A stretch of 64,000 nucleotides of DNA from Bacteroidota bacterium (GTDB taxonomy: Bacteria > Bacteroidota > Ignavibacteria > 0-14-0-80-59-12), in contig JBMFJZ010000003.1 in the NCBI GenBank assembly GCA_049973045.1, positions 142,319-206,318 on the forward strand. The letters run 5' to 3'. Positions 28,009 to 59,492 of this stretch are shown here, piece by piece. Position numbers and translations under genes: made by a program. The first letter of the stretch is position 1. Every line of letters starts with the position of its first letter. The notes under the pieces were generated by a model. That model was given only the letters and a program-made list of their open reading frames with translations, was not told where the DNA came from and did not search any database.

Positions 28009-29724
28009 TTAAAAGACTGCTGGCTCTTCGTACACTCCGAACACTTCTTTCAATGTGTTCACCATTTCACCCAGTGTAGCGTACACCCTTGCTGCCTGAA
28101 TGATACGTGGCATTAAATTAGACCCATCCTCAGCTGCGCGACGCAAATCATCTAATGCTTTATCAACATCTTCAGCATTTCGAGAAGCACGAACGTCTCT
28201 GAGACGTTCACGCTGCCGAATTTCAGCTTCTTTCCCAATACGTAATAGCGGAATCTCAATCTGTTCATCCTCTTCAATAAAGTCATTCACACCGACGATG
28301 ATCCGCTCTTTCCTCTCAATTTCTTGTTGATAGCGATACGCAGCATCAGCTATTTCCCTTTGGAAGAACCCCTGTTCAATAGCAGGTATGACCCCACCAA
28401 GAGCATCGATCTTTTCGAAATATTGTTCTGCCTCATGCTCAAGTCGGTTCGTAAGAGATTCAATATAATAGCTTCCTCCAAGAGGATCAATAGTATTTAC
28501 GACGCCACTTTCGTAGGCAATAATTTGCTGTGTCCGCAAGGCTATCTTTGCAGCTTTTTCAGATGGGAGCGCAAGTGTTTCGTCCATGGAGTTCGTATGC
28601 AACGATTGCGTTCCGCCCAACACTCCCGCCAGTGCTTCAAGGGCAGTGCGCACGATGTTGTTCTCTGGTTGCTGAGCCATCAAAGAGCACCCCGCCGTCT
28701 GTGTATGGAATCGTAATGTCCATGAGCGGGGATTTTTTGCATGATACTTCTCTCTCATTCGTCGAGCATAGATACGGCGTGCAGCGCGGAACTTCGCTAT
28801 TTCCTCAAAAAAGTCGAGGTGTGAGTTGAAAAAGAAAGAAAGACGCGGTGCAAATTCATCCACATCGAGACCCGCCTGAATACCCGCTTCAACATAAGCG
28901 AAACCATCTGCGAGAGTGAAGGCAAGTTCCTGAGCTGCAGTGGCACCGGCTTCGCGGATGTGGTATCCACTGATGGAAATAGGATTCCATTTAGGTACTT
29001 CTTTTGCACAATACTTAAAGATATCAGTAATGATCCGCATCGATGGAGCAGGTGGATATACCCACTCTTTTTGTGCTATATACTCTTTCAGGATATCGTT
29101 CTGGATTGTGCCACGGAGCCGGTTGGGTTTCACCCCTTGCTTCTCCGCAACAACTATGTAAAAGGCAAAGAGCATCGCAGCCGGAGCATTGATCGTCATC
29201 GAGGTTGAAACTTGGTCGAGTGATATGCCTCTGAACAAAACCTCCATGTCAGCAAGTGAACTTACGGAGACGCCACATACACCAACTTCTCCCTCCGACA
29301 TAGGATCGTCGGCATCGCGACCCATAAGAGTTGGAAGGTCGAAAGCAATTGATAAGCCTGTTTCTCCGTGCCTGAGGAGGTAATGGAAACGCTGGTTTGT
29401 ATCTTCTGGTGTACCGAATCCAGAGAACTGACGCATCGTCCAGAGACGACCGCGATACATCGTACGGTGGATCCCCCGCGTGTAAGGATATTCACCGGGG
29501 AAACCAAGATCACGCAAGTAATCAAACTCTTCAAGATCAGCAGGGGTGTACAATCGCTCCACTGGAGCATCACTGATTGTCGTAAATTTCACACGCCTTG
29601 ATTCTCCGTACATTGCTCTCTCTTGCATATTGTCGTTTTCTAATTCCTTCAACCAACGTCCCTTCTCAGCACGTATTTTCTTGAGATCATCGTTTCTCAT
29701 CGTGGTTCCCTCCATCTGAAGCAA
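28009..29724 (-). CDS. Methylmalonyl-CoA mutase-family large (catalytic) subunit, without the C-terminal B12-binding domain
   Basis: Collinear with the MutB/Sbm N-terminal barrel ([37 protein letters not shown]...[10 protein letters not shown]); 571 aa ends before the DxHxxG B12 domain. Confidence 0.85.
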
Positions 29725-29823: not shown

Positions 29824-30228
29824 TTATTTCACCTTGTTTTCTTTTAACTCAACCTTTTTAAGAACAAAATCTTTTGCTTTTAAAGCAAGTTCAAAGCACT
29901 CTTTTGCCTCATCAACAGATGGTATGTAAAATTCTTCCGGGTATCTAACCTCAACCGCATAATCTGTAAGATTGCCGATAGTTAAGTTTTTGAACTCGCT
30001 ATCCTGTTCTGAACATAATTTTAAGAGGGTTTCAAGATCATGCGCCTTTCCAAAATCTACCTTTTTAGAAACAAGGTATGCTTTTAGCATTTCCTCAACA
30101 ACTTGCTGACGATGAAAACAAACGGGGCCTGTGGAGATTTCATTTTCAGGAAAAGTTAATTCATGTTTTGCAATATTAAAATCTTCCATTGCTTTTATTG
30201 CCCAATTTTTTATTTCCTTGTCAATCAT
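29824..30228 (-). CDS. HEPN-domain protein; toxin of an MNT-HEPN type VII-like TA pair
   Basis: HEPN pattern with HRQQVVEEMLKAYL; ATGA overlap with the upstream MNT gene. Confidence 0.7.
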   Translation of the reverse strand: MIDKEIKNWAIKAMEDFNIAKHELTFPENEISTGPVCFHRQQVVEEMLKAYLVSKKVDFGKAHDLETLLKLCSEQDSEFKNLTIGNLTDYAVEVRYPEEFYIPSVDEAKECFELALKAKDFVLKKVELKENKVK

Positions 30229-30506
30229 ATTTTAATTCCTTCTTTCAAAGCATATCTTGTAACACAGCCTATCCTGCCCTTTTTGATTTCTACTTCCTCT
30301 TCAGAATTAATTACTATATCTGCATAAACATACAATTCGGCTAGTGCTCTCCTTGTGGCACTTGCAATCTGCATCTTCTCTTTAAAACCAAATGTCCTCT
30401 CAGTTATTATTAGAAAATCACTGTTCTTTGAGTAATCTCCTCTTGCCCTTGAACCAAAAAGGATGACCTGTTTTATAGAAACCCCCATCTCGTTGAGACA
30501 TTTCAT
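30225..30506 (-). CDS. Minimal nucleotidyltransferase (MNT); cognate antitoxin of the HEPN gene
   Basis: NTase motif ILFGSRARGDYSKNSDFLII; start may instead be the ATG at 30488. Confidence 0.7.
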   Translation of the reverse strand: MKCLNEMGVSIKQVILFGSRARGDYSKNSDFLIITERTFGFKEKMQIASATRRALAELYVYADIVINSEEEVEIKKGRIGCVTRYALKEGIKI

Positions 30507-30784
30507 TGAGCAGTTTCTTCACAACATGCCAGACAATCTCGTAATCAACTCCAAAGTAAAAATCGATAACTTTATGTGTCATTCTTGCTATATCAGTTTC
30601 TTGCCATATCAGTCCAAGGTATGTCTTCATACCTTTTTCTGATAGCTTTGGGTACATTCTTTGTTGCTTCTCCGATTACTTCAATTTCTCCTACCACAGC
30701 ACTTTCATTCGTCTTTCATAAATTCTGAATCTTGTTTATCGAGATCAAAATATCTTCTATAAAAAGTTTGTAATCTCGTTTCAT
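30418..30784 (-). pseudogene. Decayed HepT (DUF86-type HEPN) toxin gene split into three frames
   Basis: Minus-strand fragments MKRDYKLFIEDILISINKIQNL*, ...VIGEATKNVPKAIRKRYEDIPWTDMARN* and ...IARMTHKVIDFYFGVDYEIVWHVVKKLL; together collinear with HepT proteins. Confidence 0.6.
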
Positions 30785-30851
30785 ATCTCCACAGCCTCTC
30801 TCAAGATTCTATCTCGTAGTTCTTCACGCAAAACAGGCTTCCTAACCAAAT

Positions 30852-31010
30852 TTAGTTAACTCCCAACAATTCTTCTAAATGCCTTCCAATTTCAATAAAC
30901 TCTAAAAAGTCTGGGACATCATAAAAATCGACAAGTATATCTACGTCACTTGTCTTTTTCTGTTGGTTTCTCACATAAGAGCAGCAGAAATATCCCAAAG
31001 GTCATCAGCA
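30852..31010 (-). pseudogene. Decayed MntA-like nucleotidyltransferase fragment upstream of the HepT pseudogene
   Basis: Minus-strand frame ...SYVRNQQKKTSDVDILVDFYDVPDFLEFIEIGRHLEELLGVN*, preceded by an in-frame stop replacing the GS-motif region. Confidence 0.5.
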
Positions 31011-31176
31011 AATATTACTCTGTAGTCACTATATTCATCTTTTGATTGTTTCGGCCCTTTGAAGCCAGGCTTAAGTTCCGGTCCATATATTTCTTTGTAA
31101 TATTCTTTTACCTCATAGCCTTTATTCGTTGACGTATTCATCGCCTTTTTACCGAGATGTCTCCAGGTAATCTAAG

Positions 31177-33018
31177 TCACGTGCGTCCAAAAAATTTATC
31201 AAATTCTTCCAGAGAAAGCTTCACAATAACAGGGCGACCATGTGGACACGAGTAAGGTATGGAAGTGGCAAACAATTGATCGATTAGCGATCGCATCTCT
31301 TCCAGGGATAATGGATCTCCAGCTTTGATTGCAGCTCTGCATGCAAATGACTTGGCAAGCCGATCCCGTATCGAAAGAGAAACCTCCCCTCGATCATCTC
31401 TGTATTCGTCAAGAATATCCTGCAAGATTCTTGCCTCATAGCCAATCCTCACATCAGCTGGAATTCCACTGACAAGGATAGTGTTCTTCCCGAAAATCTG
31501 GAGATCGAAACCAAGCCGCTGAAGTTCGCTCATGAGCTCAGTTACAAGTGCGAAATCTGCCGGTGGAAGCTCAACAGTCTGCGGAAAAAGAAGCTGCTGC
31601 GAGAGCGGAGCATTGCTTTCCAGCATTTCAACCGCTCGTTCATACAGGATACGCTCATGTGCAGCGTGCTGATCGATGATCACCAAACCAGATTTCACTT
31701 GCGACAGGATGTACTTATTATGCAGCTGCCATATTCTTGGCTCTTCCTGATCAACAACTCCGGCACCAGAACGCGTCGACACTGGAATTTCATGCGGAAG
31801 TGGGATAATGGAAAGCTTAGCTTCTCTACGGAATGACGAAGGAAACACTGAAGCCTTTTCTGATTGGAGCTCCTTCCGCATGAATGCTAAATGCATCTCA
31901 GTCCGGCTTCCCATTTGATCCCCTGTTCCTTGTTCGACGGCATCGGAAGAGCTGAATCGTTTATCACCAGCTAATTCAAGGGGAGGTGCAAGATCATGAG
32001 AACTGAGAGCCCCCCGAACTGTATGGAGAACCTGGCGGTAGACGCCCGACTCATCATCGAACTTCACCTCGAGTTTCGAAGGATGAACATTGACATCAAC
32101 TCGGCTTGGATCGATCTCGAGAAAAAGAACAAAGAAGGGGAAACTCCCTTTCTCGACCAGATGTTCATACGCACTGTAGACAGCGTGGCTGAGGACCCTG
32201 CTTGTAATAAATCTCCGATTTAAGAAGAAAATCTGTTCAGTACGCGTTTTTCGTGCAAATTGAGGTTTGGAGACAAAACCATGGATACGGAGAGAACCCG
32301 ACCCTTCGTTCACAGGAATAAGAGACCCAAAGAATTCTTCGCCAAGAAGATCTCGTATCCTCTGCTCGTATGTAGGAGTCGACTGAACATCCAGAATGAT
32401 TTCATCATCATTGACGAAGGTAAACGCAACTTCGTGCCACGCCATTGCGGTTCGTTGCACGGTTTCAAATATATGTTTGAACTCCGTGGCATCGCTTTTC
32501 AAAAATTTTCGCCGGGCAGGGGTATTGTAGAAAAGATTGCGAACGGTCACACTTGTCCCAGCCTCCATTGCAACAGGCTCAACAAGCTCACGCACGCCTC
32601 CAGCGATACGAATACGCGTTCCAAGAGCGTCCCCCCGCACATCTCCACCTGTGGCGGACATAGCTAAGCGGGTCTTCAACTCAACCTGAGCTACTGCAGC
32701 TATTGACGCTAAGGCTTCTCCCCGAAAGCCGAGCGTCTCGATATGTCCCAGATCTTCATCGCTGGCAATCTTGCTCGTCGCATGACGCTCAAACGCTGTC
32801 AAAGCATCTTCTGCAGACATCCCGATCCCGTCATCACTGACCTGAATGAAACTTTTCCCAGCCTTGCGAATAACAACGGTCACAGAGCGAGCCTGCGCAT
32901 CAATGGCGTTTTCAATGAGTTCTTTGACTACAGATTCAGGACGCTGAACTACTTCACCAGCAGCGATCTTTCTCGCAAGATGTTCAGGCAAGATATTGAT
33001 TGTACGTGCCACAGTCAA
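31177..33018 (-). CDS. mutL: DNA mismatch repair protein MutL
   Basis: GHKL ATPase N-terminus INILPEHLARKIAAGEVVQRPESVVKELIENAIDA; C-terminal dimerisation domain. Confidence 0.9.
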   Translation of the reverse strand: MTVARTINILPEHLARKIAAGEVVQRPESVVKELIENAIDAQARSVTVVIRKAGKSFIQVSDDGIGMSAEDALTAFERHATSKIASDEDLGHIETLGFRGEALASIAAVAQVELKTRLAMSATGGDVRGDALGTRIRIAGGVRELVEPVAMEAGTSVTVRNLFYNTPARRKFLKSDATEFKHIFETVQRTAMAWHEVAFTFVNDDEIILDVQSTPTYEQRIRDLLGEEFFGSLIPVNEGSGSLRIHGFVSKPQFARKTRTEQIFFLNRRFITSRVLSHAVYSAYEHLVEKGSFPFFVLFLEIDPSRVDVNVHPSKLEVKFDDESGVYRQVLHTVRGALSSHDLAPPLELAGDKRFSSSDAVEQGTGDQMGSRTEMHLAFMRKELQSEKASVFPSSFRREAKLSIIPLPHEIPVSTRSGAGVVDQEEPRIWQLHNKYILSQVKSGLVIIDQHAAHERILYERAVEMLESNAPLSQQLLFPQTVELPPADFALVTELMSELQRLGFDLQIFGKNTILVSGIPADVRIGYEARILQDILDEYRDDRGEVSLSIRDRLAKSFACRAAIKAGDPLSLEEMRSLIDQLFATSIPYSCPHGRPVIVKLSLEEFDKFFGRT

Positions 33019-55338: not shown

Positions 55339-55455
55339 ATGACTGACGGCAAGCCAACGATAAAGGATGTCGCTAGGCGAGCGGGGACAGCTGTGAGCAC
55401 TGCTTCGCTCGTTGTGAATAAAAAAGGTTACGTAAGCGCAGAGGTCAGTGCCAGA
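55339..55455 (+). pseudogene. Remnant of a LacI-family transcriptional regulator (HTH only), fused in frame to the following foreign gene
   Basis: KPTIKDVARRAGTAVSTASLVVNKKGYVSAEV matches the LacI HTH consensus TIKDVAxxAGVSxxTVSRVLNxxGYVSxET; an abrupt shift to AT-rich sequence follows. Confidence 0.6.
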
Positions 55456-55491
55456 TCTTTTATAATTGCCCTAATTAATTTTGGAAATACT

Positions 55492-58437
55492 ATGTATAAA
55501 AAAGAAATTTTAATAATCTTCTTCTTGTTTTCATTTAATCTGTATGCACAAAATTTTTCCAATGGATTTAATTTTTATTTACCATCCAGTGATACAACTT
55601 CTCAAAAATTTTTACCTCAATTTCCCATTGATAAAATTGAAGATGATGAATTTGTATCTATCAATGCTGAAGGGAAATTTAGTGTAAAAGGGAGAAGAAT
55701 TCGTTTATGCGGTACAAACTTTGGAGCTGATAATGCTTTCCCGCCAAGAGATAAAGCCGGACTTTTAGCCGGACGTTTGAGAAAATTTGGCTTTAATCTT
55801 GTACGCATGCATCATCTCGATAATCCATGGTCAAACAGAAGTCTTGTAGGCAAAAGCGATACACGAGAGATTATTCCTGCTTATCTCGACACTCTCGAAT
55901 ATACAATAGCAAAACTCAAGGAAAATGGAATTTATGTGAACATGAATCTCCATGTTTCAAGAACCTTCAGAATTTTTGATCAGGTTGCAGATTATGATTC
56001 GCTTCCAAAATTTGGAAAAGGTATAAATTTCTTTGACCCCTATATAAAAAGTCTTCACAAAGAATATGCACGTCAACTGCTTACTCATGTAAATCCATAT
56101 ACTGGCAAAGCATTGGTTAATGACCCGGTTATGGCAATGGTCGAAATTACTAATGAAAATTCTCTATATCGGTTCTGGAGAAATAATCAGTTAAAACCAA
56201 TTTCATCTGGCGGTGTTTTACCATACTATTATTCAAAAATGCTTGATAGCCTGTGGAATGAATTTTTATTAAGCAAATATCAATCAACCCAGAATTTATT
56301 GGCAGCATGGAACAAAGGACAAATTTCATCTGTTCAAAATGAACAGGTAAAAAATGGAGGTTTTGAAAATCCTAATCCTCCAAATTACTGGGCTCTGGAA
56401 GAACATAATGGCGCTGATGCAGATACCTCACGCGATGATTCTGTTTCTTATAAAGGAAATTACAGCTTTAAAGTTATTGTAAAAAATGCTACTGGAACAA
56501 ATTGGCATATTCAATTCAAATTACCTTCAGCTACAATATTAAAAGATTCTTTATATGCACTTTCATTTGCGGCTTGTTCAGATTCACCGAAAGAAATTGC
56601 TGTTAATATTATGAATGATAATTCACCATGGAATTCTTATGGATGGTATTCAATAAAATTATCAACAAACTGGCGAACATTTTCTTTTAGCATTAAAGCT
56701 CCCGAAGATAACAAAGGTCATACAAGATTGTCATTCAGTCTTGGCAAAGAAAAAGGAACATATTGGTTTGACGAAATTAGTTTTACAAAAGCCGGAGTTG
56801 TTGGTTTAGAACAAAATGAATCACTCGAATTAAAAAATATTGCAAGAATAGATTATTCAAAATGTGTTCAATACACAAATCAACGTGTTAAAGATATGTC
56901 CGAATTTTATATCAATCTCGAAAGAAATTATTTCAAGGAAATGATTTCGTTTTTGAAAGATACACTTGGTGTGAAAGTGCCAATTGTTGGAACCAATTGG
57001 AATGTAGGTCCAGCAGATTTAGCAGCAATGTCTGATGCTGATTATGTTGATAATCATGCTTACTGGGACCATCCGCGATTCCCATCAGGTGCACGGTCTT
57101 CAACTGATTGGCTTATTAACAATACTCCAATGGTAAAAGATAATAACGGCGGAACTATACCCGGTTTATTTGCTGGTGTTCCAATTGTTGGTAAACCTTT
57201 TACTGTTAGTGAATACAATCATACGTTTCCAAATCGATATCAGGTAGAATCAATTTTATTCATTGCCGGCTATGCTTCTTTTAATGATGCAGATGCATTT
57301 ATGTATTTTGACTACAGCGAAGCTTTTGAATGGGAAAAAGATTTTATTGCTAATTTCTTTGGAATTAACCGCAATTCTGTTTTGATGTCGTTTTTTCCAA
57401 CTATTGCTTATGCATTTAGAAATGGTTTAATCAAGCCCTCGTTAAATCCAATTCATATAAATTACACAGCAGATACTTTGTATGCCTTACCTAAGAATGA
57501 TGCTTCTGGCTGGTATGGTCCTTCTTTTTACGATAGAAAAATTTCTCTCATTCATTCGATTAAAACAGAAAATTATTTTGGAACAAGCACGACTAACTTT
57601 AATCAGCTACCTCAAATTTCTGGTAATTCATTCACAACTGATACAGAAGAAATTACTTGGAATACTACTGATGGAACATTAACCATAGCTGCACCAAGAC
57701 TAAATGGATTTACCGGATATCTTTCTAAATTAAAAGGAAAAAGGATTGGCGATATTTATGTGATTGATGTTCTCTCATCAGATGATTTTGGTGCTCTAAC
57801 ATGGTTGTCTTTAACAAACAATCCGGTTTCAAGTTCAAATAAATCTTTAATTACAATCGGCTCTAAAATTCAAAATACTGGAATGATCTGGAAAGGAACA
57901 ACAACAGTTAATAATAATTGGGGACATTCACCGACTCAAATTTATCCATTAAAAATCAAACTCGATTTGATGATTTATGCTGATTCAATTAGAGTTTATC
58001 CGCTTGACAATAAAGGAAAAGAAAATTTATCACGGTCGTTTGTAATAAAACCATTTCAGACAAATCATTTTTTATTAGAAATTGACCAGTCAATTTATAA
58101 ATCACTCTGGTTTGGAATTGAATGCTATGGAGAAGGAATAAAAACAAAAATTAATGATTATGGTTTAAGTCCCTTTAATTATAAATTGGAACAAAATTTT
58201 CCTAATCCATTTAATGGAACTTCAATTATAAAATATCAGGTTCCTGAAAACACAATTGTTAAAATAAAACTTTACGATATTTTAGGAAGGGAAATTAAAA
58301 CACTCGTTGATGAATATAAGACCCCTGGCTATTATCAGATTGAAATGAATTCCGAAAATATTTCAAGTGGTGTATATTTCTGTGCTTTTCAATCAAATAA
58401 TTTTGTAGATGTAAGGAAAATTGTTCTTATAAAATAA
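55492..58437 (+). CDS. Secreted clan-GH-A-like glycoside hydrolase with a CBM4_9-like carbohydrate-binding module and a T9SS C-terminal sorting domain. A mannanase role is suspected from context only
   Basis: Signal peptide MYKKEILIIFFLFSFNLYA; TIM-barrel-like catalytic region with an NE motif (VEITNENSLY); CBM start NGGFENP; CTD NFPNPFNGTSIIKYQV...GVYFCAF...LIK. Confidence 0.6.
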   Translation: MYKKEILIIFFLFSFNLYAQNFSNGFNFYLPSSDTTSQKFLPQFPIDKIEDDEFVSINAEGKFSVKGRRIRLCGTNFGADNAFPPRDKAGLLAGRLRKFGFNLVRMHHLDNPWSNRSLVGKSDTREIIPAYLDTLEYTIAKLKENGIYVNMNLHVSRTFRIFDQVADYDSLPKFGKGINFFDPYIKSLHKEYARQLLTHVNPYTGKALVNDPVMAMVEITNENSLYRFWRNNQLKPISSGGVLPYYYSKMLDSLWNEFLLSKYQSTQNLLAAWNKGQISSVQNEQVKNGGFENPNPPNYWALEEHNGADADTSRDDSVSYKGNYSFKVIVKNATGTNWHIQFKLPSATILKDSLYALSFAACSDSPKEIAVNIMNDNSPWNSYGWYSIKLSTNWRTFSFSIKAPEDNKGHTRLSFSLGKEKGTYWFDEISFTKAGVVGLEQNESLELKNIARIDYSKCVQYTNQRVKDMSEFYINLERNYFKEMISFLKDTLGVKVPIVGTNWNVGPADLAAMSDADYVDNHAYWDHPRFPSGARSSTDWLINNTPMVKDNNGGTIPGLFAGVPIVGKPFTVSEYNHTFPNRYQVESILFIAGYASFNDADAFMYFDYSEAFEWEKDFIANFFGINRNSVLMSFFPTIAYAFRNGLIKPSLNPIHINYTADTLYALPKNDASGWYGPSFYDRKISLIHSIKTENYFGTSTTNFNQLPQISGNSFTTDTEEITWNTTDGTLTIAAPRLNGFTGYLSKLKGKRIGDIYVIDVLSSDDFGALTWLSLTNNPVSSSNKSLITIGSKIQNTGMIWKGTTTVNNNWGHSPTQIYPLKIKLDLMIYADSIRVYPLDNKGKENLSRSFVIKPFQTNHFLLEIDQSIYKSLWFGIECYGEGIKTKINDYGLSPFNYKLEQNFPNPFNGTSIIKYQVPENTIVKIKLYDILGREIKTLVDEYKTPGYYQIEMNSENISSGVYFCAFQSNNFVDVRKIVLIK

Positions 58438-58697
58438 TTCTGATAATTATTTATAATGATTAATTAAAAGTTCTATTTCAGATTATCTTGAATATAGTTT
58501 GGAACCTGAGAAGATAAATTTAATAATGTCATGCTGAACGAAGTGAAGCATCTTAAAAATTATTTTATGGAAAGATGTTTTGAAAATGTTTTTAGTATTT
58601 TTTGCATCAATTTTTGACAGAGCTTTGGGGTGAACGTAAGAATGAAAAACAATAAATTATATGAAAAACAAAATCGCCAAGTTATGAGATATCATAG

Positions 58698-59492
58698 CAG
58701 CTGGAGGGAACTGAGCGGCTATTTAAATTTGCTGCTTCAGAGGTAAGAATTGCGAAGGATTTTGAGGATCAAGTTTTGCAAATGCAGTTAGTACAAGCCA
58801 AGGCAGTAAAGACAGGTATGTTGCACTGGAGAGCAAGAAAATGGAGAACATCGGGGGCGCTATTCTGGCAACTGAACGACTGTTGGCCTGCCTCCAGCTG
58901 GTCCGCCATCGACTATGCGAAACGACCTAAGGCTTTGTACTATTGGTCGAAACATTTCAATAAACCAACGAAAGTGGTCTTTAAGAAAAGGAACGACTGT
59001 GTCATCCCGATTATCGTAAATGATTCATTGACTCCGTTCAGGGGGAAAATCATTATTGTCAAGCAAAAAGTTGATGGGGGAAAATTGTTTGAAATTTCCG
59101 CTAATATTAGTATTGAAAAAAATTCAATCTTGAGAGTCAATAAACTCCCTGTAGAGATTACGGCTGACGAAACAACTTTTCTTTACGCAAGGCTAATTGA
59201 CATAGCCTCTGACGCTGCTGTTGACGAAGAAGACTTCATAGCAGTACCTTGGCTTGATTTTAAGAGGCCGGACATAAAATACGTTATAACGGAGCCCAGC
59301 CCAACCGAAAAGCTGGTGACTTTTGTCAGCAATGTCTTCATTCAGGGCGTTTACCTTGACCTTGGTGAAAAAGTTGGGGAAGTGTCGGACAACTTCTTTA
59401 CGTTATATCCAAATGTGGAAAAGCAGGTGCTTGTGAAGTCTTATCTGATAAAAGACAATCTTCAAATTCGCACCCCATTAGTACAAGAATGA
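58698..59492 (+). pseudogene. C-terminal fragment of a GH2 beta-mannosidase (about the last 260 aa); the upstream part is absent
   Basis: ALFWQLNDCWPASSWSAIDYAKRPKALYY is the conserved GH2 beta-mannosidase segment; the frame opens right after a TAG at 58695-58697. Confidence 0.6.

Follow-up and report, generated by a model that had tools for sequence, protein, structure and literature searches.

The 1.35-kb AT-rich islet between mutL and the methylmalonyl-CoA mutase gene of an uncultured Bacteroidota bacterium (29824..31176, no strand assigned) is very probably a small, horizontally acquired insertion of two different HEPN/MNT modules that is undergoing erosion. Few toxin-antitoxin modules are as abundant as HEPN/MNT pairs, which are frequently placed in tandem. 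The islet, which lies in a 64-kb window (the whole stretch of DNA that was analysed), reads on the minus strand, as do all the features located below: remnants of MntA and HepT lie upstream, and open reading frames for an MNT and a HEPN protein lie downstream. The first-pass annotation had described two tandem MNT-then-HEPN cassettes, the upstream one decayed, and that description is supported; the peptides it quoted were all recovered at the minus-strand places where it had put them. Under the class definitions of PMC7641770, which also provides mutagenesis of the GSX10DXD and RX4HXY motifs, the upstream pair belongs to class I (type VII HepT/MntA; PF01934/PF01909) and the downstream pair to class II (PF05168/PF01909). 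In class I pairs the RNase HepT is normally kept in check by its MNT, which adds AMP to the RX4HXY tyrosine; class II HEPN/MNT has been defined as a class, but toxicity and neutralisation have been established for no pair of it (PMC7641770).

The islet is bordered by mutL (31177..33018) and by the methylmalonyl-CoA mutase gene (28009..29724). Its GC content is 0.354, as against 0.470 +/- 0.039 across 45 equally long windows that do not overlap (z = -3.0), and the same cassettes are AT-rich in other hosts as well. In 45 of 45 related loci, all from distant relatives whose MutL is only 47-56% identical, mutL directly adjoins the mutase gene (median gap 80 bp, range -54 to 816 bp), and none of the 45 carries an MNT, HEPN or HepT gene between the two. 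The base composition and the lack of these genes from the related loci bear out the earlier suggestion of an AT-rich islet of horizontal origin and, as far as comparative sequence can tell, mark the islet as an acquired insertion. Its neighbouring genes include no recombinase, no tRNA was found within ~9.7 kb, and neither a direct repeat nor a target-site duplication could be convincingly identified at its flanks. An Rfam search of the islet gave no match, and no additional HEPN/MNT copies were found within the window. A scan for sigma-70 promoters and terminators performed no better than on shuffled sequence, and the Bacteroidota -7 motif TAnnTTTG matched 42 times, with 36.5 matches expected.

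The upstream module is the descendant of an MntA/HepT pair of class I (type VII). Only residues 32-97 of intact MntA are represented in the MntA pseudogene (30781..30992), the first 31 having been lost by 5' truncation. When its fragments are re-joined they match the NTP_transf_2 profile (E=2e-7) and the NCBIfam MntA_antitoxin profile (E=1e-5), and from SYVRN onwards the remnant is 64-71% identical to P0121 and to the MntA of L085. DNA alignment with the intact L085 cassette identifies a 1-bp deletion (GTTAA-CTAAAT, 30851..30860) that causes both the frameshift and a TAA stop; the stop said to end the MntA piece is present, but it comes after this deletion. Alignment with intact homologues further shows that the GGC glycine codon of the GS motif has been replaced by TGCTGC (30981..30986), which turns F-G-S into F-C-C-S. 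The GSX10DXD motif is accordingly incomplete, with the DVD kept and the glycine changed to Cys-Cys. Where the 5' end of MntA should lie there is a 56-aa ORF (30971..31141) that forms a single-member protein cluster, found in this species only. A RelE/ParE-like remnant and a frame-shifted MntA N-terminus were considered for this ORF and rejected: it has no match in Pfam, NCBIfam, PADLOC or PHROGs, tblastn of the related loci gave no match, and intact MntA proteins used as tblastn queries showed no homology in their N-terminal part. The ORF is probably not a gene and is treated here as orphan sequence.

The stop of MntA overlaps the start of the HepT pseudogene (30500..30784) in an ATGA (30784..30781). 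The re-joined HepT fragments match PF01934 HepT-like (E=2.3e-13), so that the profile searches proposed for the fragments succeeded for both genes, and the re-joined protein aligns from end to end with intact HepT proteins of 114-118 aa at 61-68% identity. Mapping against the intact L085 cassette places a cluster of lesions at 30706..30725. Its 28-bp deletion (30720/30719) lies between GAATTT repeats, and the other lesions are a TGA in frame (30718..30716), the loss of 5 bp (30711/30710) and, at 30706, an A>G substitution. The ancestral state, with neither the 5-bp deletion nor the A>G change, is seen in L003; the 5 bp are absent from the other assemblies. A 16-bp tandem duplication (30582..30613), already reported in the first-pass annotation, does exist; its copies agree at 15/16 bases, it shifts the HepT frame, and the window shares it with L001, L003, L084 and L119. 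The RX4HXY motif is degenerate (30556..30579) and reads T-HKVI-D-F-Y where homologues have R-DKII-H-F-Y. The K, I, F and Y columns are invariant, whereas the R and H conserved in 12 intact homologues are replaced here; the motif has therefore become TX4D and departs from the class I RX4HXY, with the acceptor Tyr still readable. The last ~17-20 residues are gone by 3' truncation.

HepT had been described as broken into three frames. It is broken, but its first two pieces share a frame with the TGA between them, and only the third piece differs. Nor does removing the 16-bp duplication restore HepT, as had been proposed, since the 28-bp deletion, the TGA, the R->T and H->D changes and the missing C-terminus remain. 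The claim that the upstream toxin is inactivated holds for HepT, which is dead, but the damage is not confined to the toxin, MntA having lost 31 residues, the GS glycine and its frame. The class I genes retain their order and their ATGA overlap, and each of the two reading frames is broken. The separate lesions number at least eight and include the loss of both catalytic motifs; to judge from its sequence, the pair is dead in both genes.

These lesions are not assembly errors. The sequences are metagenome assemblies, one of them with only ~4x coverage, which might encourage the view that the upstream pair is really intact and that its frameshifts and 16-bp duplication come from errors of assembly or sequencing. 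We consider this highly improbable, because the same lesions as in the window are repeated in the assemblies covering the upstream pair from four other sources (GCA_049969995.1, GCA_049700715.1, Logan SRR6344962 and ENA ERZ3623746), as is the case for the frameshifts noted earlier, and because a single base distinguishes one duplicate copy from the other. Furthermore, sequencing errors cannot yield the substitutions of the catalytic R and H or the absence of 27-28 bp and of the C-terminus.

The two cassettes are unrelated, belonging to different classes, and are not paralogues of each other. Pairwise comparison of HepT and HEPN detects no similarity, and the class I and class II MNTs are alignable only over 44 residues around the catalytic motif. 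The downstream module had been taken for a paralogue of the upstream one; with PF01934 on one side, PF05168 on the other and no similarity between HepT and HEPN, that view does not stand. The same comparisons bear on the idea that the modules interact, with class II displacing or cross-neutralising class I and decay being an outcome of competition between addiction modules. The modules are in tandem, both antitoxins are MNT-fold enzymes, and elsewhere MNTs of class I-like and class II-like type occur side by side or fused (for example, P0192). However, in addition to the dissimilarity of HepT and HEPN and the short MNT alignment, the HEPN protein lacks the RX4HXY acceptor context, and the class I antitoxin has decayed as far as its toxin, a pattern in keeping with simple neutral erosion. 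Nothing was found in support of the competition suggested earlier, and we regard such an interaction as scarcely conceivable.

The class II MNT gene (30225..30506) encodes 93 aa and matches NTP_transf_2 (E=7.4e-7). Its stop overlaps the start of HEPN in an ATGA, the PF05168 gene lying immediately downstream of the PF01909 gene. This overlap had been recognised and is real, but the pair is not intact as had been supposed: the MNT has a truncated N-terminus and has lost one Asp from its DXD. The truncation, a deletion at a TGAAATG microhomology, removed ~16 N-terminal codons, so that 17 residues precede the motif glycine, compared with a median of 30 among 107 homologues; the MNTs of the four closest relatives carry ~16 extra N-terminal residues. 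Since 3 of the 107 homologues, such as P0188, have an equally short N-terminus, truncation alone need not disable the MNT. The Asp was lost in an in-frame 6-bp deletion between TGATT direct repeats (30414..30419; the codons here are D30 and F31), which reduced SD[YD]FLII to SDFLII: the sequence is AGTGATTATGATTTT in L089, L091, L092 and L110 and AGTGATTTT in the window. The MNT genes beside the 19 nearest HEPN relatives all have SD[YWF]D, and an exact GSX10DXD occurs in 104 of 107 representative homologues, whereas the motif region of the window MNT is GS-RARGDYSKNS-DFL. The protein retains the GS and the third conserved acidic residue, D63.

The class II HEPN gene (29824..30228) is full length, with 134 aa, a PF05168 match at E=3.2e-16 and 74-76% identity to its nearest relatives; by profile it also matches the HEPN proteins 1wol and 1ufb of the PDB. 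It has no RX4H, and the invariant R95-Y96 and the near-invariant H63 are kept, as are D16, C37, F38, Q42, E45 and K49. The K that 53 of 53 homologues have at position 46 is E here (K46E), and R40 stands in a column that is C in 41 of 53. Among the columns with a conservation of at least 90%, HEPN deviates at only one, a number equal to the family median; the count of private substitutions in HEPN (1) thus gives no signal as a test of relaxed constraint, and K46E is for this reason only suggestive. A complete HEPN gene lies beside the DXD-less MNT in every examined assembly of the species.

The HepT remnant is fused to the MNT at a deletion junction (A + TGAAATG, 30499..30506) that creates the ATG start of the MNT. 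In DNA alignments, homology to HepT stops at TGAAAT and homology to native MNTs begins at that same TGAAAT; the edges are CTCAATGAAATG on the HepT side and TGAAATGTCTC on the MNT side, and the 5' sequence of native MNTs is of the ATTTTG type. A 13-bp tandem duplication, CTCAATGAAATGT / CTCAACGAGATGG, with doubled LNEM coding, was considered and rejected in favour of the deletion junction because AAATGT matches K-C codons native to the relatives of the MNT and because homology to HepT extends as far as TGAAAT. The ENA contig NODE_427 ends at 30499 and NODE_1752 starts at 30505, and the second contig of GCA_049700715.1 likewise starts at 30505. These contig ends, which come from two assemblies only, suggest that an allele without the fusion deletion may still coexist in the population; a protein-cluster look-up for such an allele returned only truncated MNT forms. 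If pre- and post-fusion alleles do coexist in one population, a direct comparison of the two becomes possible.

As the sequence shows, a deletion between two TGAAAT(G) copies removed the HepT 3' end, the spacer with the presumed class II promoter and ~16 codons of the class II MNT, and the junction supplied the MNT with a new in-frame ATG. A later 6-bp slippage deletion took one Asp of the GSX10DXD, leaving an MNT that is presumably no longer able to transfer nucleotides. In that case HEPN would be harmless without modification, or weakened by K46E, or barely expressed, and any expression of the islet would ride on read-through from mutL towards the mutase gene. Erosion may well be ongoing, as the 5-bp deletion in HepT is polymorphic between strains and the contig ends hint at an undeleted allele. 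Decay also appears to be recent: dN/dS is 0.12-0.19 for the class II genes relative to their relatives, and dN is 0.14-0.17, with dS saturated, for the class I remnants.

The class II genes nonetheless both retain open reading frames and, by dN/dS, have not accumulated the substitutions expected under relaxed constraint, and the pair could work by binding alone. In the fullest form of this argument, only class I is junk and class II is still a working toxin-antitoxin or defence module whose truncated, DXD-less MNT neutralises HEPN by stoichiometric binding. The retained ATGA overlap, the in-frame ATG gained at the junction, the preservation of D63 and GS, the dN/dS values and the few natural homologues that are equally short at the N-terminus are all consistent with such a pair. 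However, the window MNT has lost a motif that is exact in nearly all of its homologues (104/107); in class I MntA, a DXD-to-EXE change does away with modification and makes neutralisation weaker (PMC7641770); the deletion took the native 5' region, presumably together with the promoter; and K46E alters a position at which each of the 53 other homologues has K. A working class II pair therefore seems unlikely to us, and erosion of both modules is the reading that we prefer.

The remnants resemble type VII HepT/MntA (PMC7641770) in their MNT-then-HepT order, 4-bp ATGA overlap, PF01934 and PF01909 domains and 61-71% identity, and in the MntA DVD and HepT acceptor Tyr that can still be read. They differ in that MntA is frameshifted and lacks residues 1-31 and the motif glycine, and in that HepT carries the 28-bp and 5-bp deletions, the TGA, the 16-bp duplication, TX4D and the loss of its C-terminus. 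The downstream pair is similarly like class II HEPN/MNT (PF05168 and PF01909; HEPN folds 1wol and 1ufb) in gene order, in the ATGA overlap and in a HEPN without RX4H, and unlike it in the missing DXD Asp, the ~16 missing N-terminal residues of the MNT and the K46E of HEPN. As a small insertion of toxin-antitoxin genes only, in a syntenic interval, without a linked recombinase and being lost by pseudogenisation and deletion, the islet also resembles eroding chromosomal toxin-antitoxin loci such as ccdO157 in E. coli and those of the Photorhabdus survey (Belot et al. 2026, PMC13617665). Unlike at those loci, the antitoxins of the islet are damaged at least as much as the toxins, and a single deletion has fused two unrelated HEPN/MNT classes.

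Erosion of chromosomal toxin-antitoxin loci is frequent (PMC13617665), and the locus is an ordinary case of it. Since HEPN/MNT pairs are abundant and often in tandem, and such erosion is well documented, the significance of the locus is mostly slight. For annotation, genes labelled 'nucleotidyltransferase' and 'HEPN' here adjoin unannotated pseudogenes, and the nucleotidyltransferase is itself motif-deficient. Of some interest is the combination of a class II HEPN and a DXD-less MNT, a natural experiment in a class without demonstrated toxin-antitoxin status. It is possible, though we hold it only tentatively and think it rather doubtful, that the locus amounts to a natural knock-out of antitoxin enzyme activity beside a complete class II HEPN, in which case either the HEPN would be non-toxic alone or the MNT would neutralise it without nucleotidyl transfer.

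The islet between mutL (31177..33018), which lies 5' of it, and the methylmalonyl-CoA mutase gene (28009..29724), which lies 3' of it, spans 1,353 bp (31176..29824), and every feature in it, like both flanking genes, is on the minus strand. In transcription order, an orphan 56-aa ORF directly after mutL (31141..30971) is followed by fragments of an MntA-type nucleotidyltransferase gene (about 30992..30781), fragments of a HepT/DUF86 gene (30784..about 30500), a 93-aa MNT ORF (30506..30225; NTP_transf_2, E=7.4e-7) and a 134-aa HEPN ORF (30228..29824; PF05168, E=3.2e-16). When re-joined, the MntA fragments match NTP_transf_2 (E=2e-7) and, in a profile search, NCBIfam MntA_antitoxin (E=1e-5), and the HepT fragments match PF01934 (E=2.3e-13). 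An ATGA overlap joins the MNT ORF to the HEPN ORF, and another joins the MntA stop to the HepT start (30784..30781). The GC content of the islet is 0.354 as compared to a mean of 0.470 +/- 0.039 in 45 non-overlapping windows of the same size (z = -3.0). These profile matches and the GC deviation confirm the observation in the first-pass annotation of two cassettes in an AT-rich interval; it had the right objects, but read too much into the condition of the downstream pair and into how the modules are related. The 56-aa ORF (30971-31141), which three NCBI metagenome-assembled genomes list as a hypothetical protein, sits where the missing MntA 5' end should be; it matches no family, and forms a single-member cluster confined to this species.

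HEPN/MNT modules include two classes (Yao et al. 2020, PMC7641770): class I, in which PF01934 or PF08780 occurs with PF01909, the toxin carries RX4HXY and the antitoxin GSX10DXD; and class II, in which PF05168 occurs with PF01909, the antitoxin carries GSX10DXD and the HEPN protein lacks RX4H. Class I modules have been validated as type VII toxin-antitoxin systems, with HepT neutralised by MntA through poly-AMPylation, while the toxin-antitoxin status of class II pairs is so far without validation (PMC7641770). Of the two cassettes here, the upstream remnant belongs to class I and the downstream pair to class II. No similarity was found between HepT and HEPN when intact representatives were compared, and the sole match shared by the two MNTs is 44 residues around the catalytic motif. 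The modules, previously described as paralogous, are thus not copies of one module.

Lesions in the class I remnant were mapped by protein comparisons, tblastn and DNA alignment against L085, the locus with the nearest intact cassette. The MntA remnant matches intact proteins of 96-97 aa, with homology beginning only at SYVRN (residue 32 of 97); unrelated sequence stands in place of codons 1-31 and any promoter. The glycine codon of its GS motif is changed from GGC to TGCTGC (30986..30981), and the loss of 1 bp at 30856/30855 causes a frameshift that leads to a TAA stop. The re-joined HepT is 61-68% identical over its full length to intact HepT proteins of 114-118 aa, and has a 28-bp deletion between GAATTT direct repeats (30720/30719), an in-frame TGA (30718..30716), a 5-bp deletion (30711/30710), an A>G change at 30706 and a 16-bp tandem duplication (30582..30613). 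Its motif reads T-HKVI-D-F-Y as compared to R-DKII-H-F-Y in homologues, and the last ~17-20 codons are absent. Removing one copy of the 16-bp duplication, proposed earlier as a check, re-joins the second and third pieces but restores no HepT, because the 28-bp deletion, the 5-bp deletion, A>G change and TGA, the R to T and H to D motif changes and the C-terminal loss all persist. Both class I genes are dead.

The downstream pair, previously called intact, is damaged in its MNT gene, which is N-terminally truncated and lacks one Asp of the DXD motif. For comparison, the MNT gene upstream of the HEPN gene was examined at loci that encode HEPN relatives. The four closest of these MNTs, with HEPN partners sharing 68-75% identity with the HEPN protein of the window, start about 16 residues earlier (for example, MSSAREISIKEIKEEILKCLNEMG...), whereas the window MNT begins MKCLNEMG. 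Of 107 representative homologues taken from a full HMMER scan, 104 conserve an exact GSX10DXD and only three have an N-terminus as short, with a median of 30 residues ahead of the motif glycine against 17 here. One catalytic Asp is lost (SDFLII in the window as opposed to SD[YWF]D in 19/19 relatives) at a 6-bp gap between TGATT repeats, where DNA alignment pairs AGTGATTATGATTTT in relatives with AGTGATTTT in the window. In class I MntA, changing DXD to EXE abolished AMPylation and weakened neutralisation (PMC7641770); the class II MNT here is predicted to lack nucleotidyl-transferase activity.

DNA alignments place the end of HepT homology (against L085) and the start of native class II MNT homology (against relatives) at the same TGAAAT(G). 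The simplest reading is that a single microhomology-mediated deletion joined the two cassettes. Such a deletion would have taken out the 3' end of HepT, the spacer between the cassettes and ~16 codons from the start of the MNT gene. The A ahead of TG at the junction supplies the ATG (30506..30504) that is now the annotated MNT start.

The HEPN ORF is full length and retains the family-invariant D16, C37, F38, Q42, E45, K49, L52, F79, R95 and Y96. Position 46, in the QQxxEKxLK motif, is E where 53/53 homologues have K, and position 40 is R where 41/53 have C. K46E is only suggestive of damage, since one deviation at strongly conserved columns, as found here, is the family median.

Assembly error as the source of the lesions is excluded, because contigs from four other sources (GCA_049969995.1, GCA_049700715.1, ENA ERZ3623746 and Logan SRR6344962), on which both the HEPN protein and the 56-aa ORF occur, match the islet of the window at 99.5-100% identity and show every lesion that they cover; the frameshifts and the duplication noted earlier are genuine. 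Five base pairs (GAAAA) and an A that are missing from the others remain in the Logan contig (L003), in both cases as in the intact L085 sequence, which makes both the 5-bp deletion and the A>G change derived and polymorphic. Erosion is probably still under way. Between L003 (6.5 kb) and the window, three of five substitutions and one of two indels fall inside 85 bp of the HepT remnant. This variant cluster lies at L003 2870-2960 (window 30700-30790), where L003 is ancestral at the 5-bp indel and one substitution; the remaining ~6.4 kb holds two substitutions and one indel.

One ERZ3623746 contig ends exactly at ...CTCAATGAAATG (30499) and the next begins exactly at TGAAATGTCTC... (30505) with a 7-bp overlap, both running unbroken for more than 10 kb away from the junction; in GCA_049700715.1, a 100-N gap is flanked by two contigs whose overlap is 55 bp (30505..30451). 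Contig ends or starts thus fall on the TGAAATG junction (window 30499-30505) in two independent assemblies (the end of L119, the start of L002, and L084 4101-4300). This pattern is as expected for an unresolved de Bruijn graph branch and suggests an indel polymorphism bounded by the TGAAATG repeat. We infer from the contig ends that the ERZ3623746 and GCA_049700715.1 samples also contain an allele in which the fusion deletion is absent.

Among species representatives, the nearest genomes are Ignavibacteriota/Bacteroidota metagenome-assembled genomes, and their MutL is only 47-56% identical. In 45 of these, mutL is directly followed by the mutase gene, with a gap of -54 to 816 bp (median 80 bp) as compared to 1,452 bp in the window, and MNT, HEPN or HepT genes occur between the two in none. 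Gaps of ~300 bp contain a ~100-aa ORF with the pattern MKIITV...FYEEWKDQ. This ORF, ABM/monooxygenase-like by appearance only, is present in 13 related genomes (L016, L018, L019, L021, L022, L024-L026, L029, L032, L037, L047 and L063) and absent from the window; the site therefore takes different small insertions in different lineages. The insertion is not marked by a recombinase among its neighbouring genes, by a tRNA within about 9.7 kb or by a convincing flanking repeat. Related cassettes are AT-rich in other hosts too, with GC below that of their flanks in 7/9 loci. Pairwise dN/dS between the class II genes and their relatives is 0.12-0.19; for the class I remnants, dN is 0.14-0.17 and dS is saturated. 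Thus, divergence took place mostly under purifying selection, and the disabling lesions arose comparatively recently.

Tandem HEPN/MNT cassettes recur elsewhere, since four loci with relatives of the class II cassette (L093, L094, L095 and L105) contain a second class II MNT gene directly 3' of the HEPN gene. The 213-aa protein P0192 fuses a class I-like MntA domain (GSYARGEQGVASDID) with a class II-like MNT domain (GSRARGDFNRFSDYD), so both MNT types occur side by side, even fused, in another genome. MNT genes are also clustered in L085-L088, where the nearest intact MntA/HepT pair adjoins a 47-aa ORF and a divergently oriented MNT gene of 140 aa. Elsewhere in the window, another AT-rich patch, stronger than the islet (55339-59492; GC about 0.29 at 57.0-58.8 kb), contains a 1032-aa ORF that starts with a putative LacI-like helix-turn-helix and continues as a putative secreted glycoside-hydrolase-like protein with a C-terminal sorting domain, followed by an apparent C-terminal fragment of a putative GH2-like gene (58776..59492). 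This patch may be another insertion or gene disruption.

The islet is an ordinary small toxin-antitoxin-only insertion in erosion, a process documented in other toxin-antitoxin families (PMC13617665). Mildly interesting is the retention of a complete class II HEPN beside an MNT short of one DXD Asp. The locus is a natural test case for the question of whether class II HEPN proteins act as toxins whose neutralisation requires nucleotidyl transfer.
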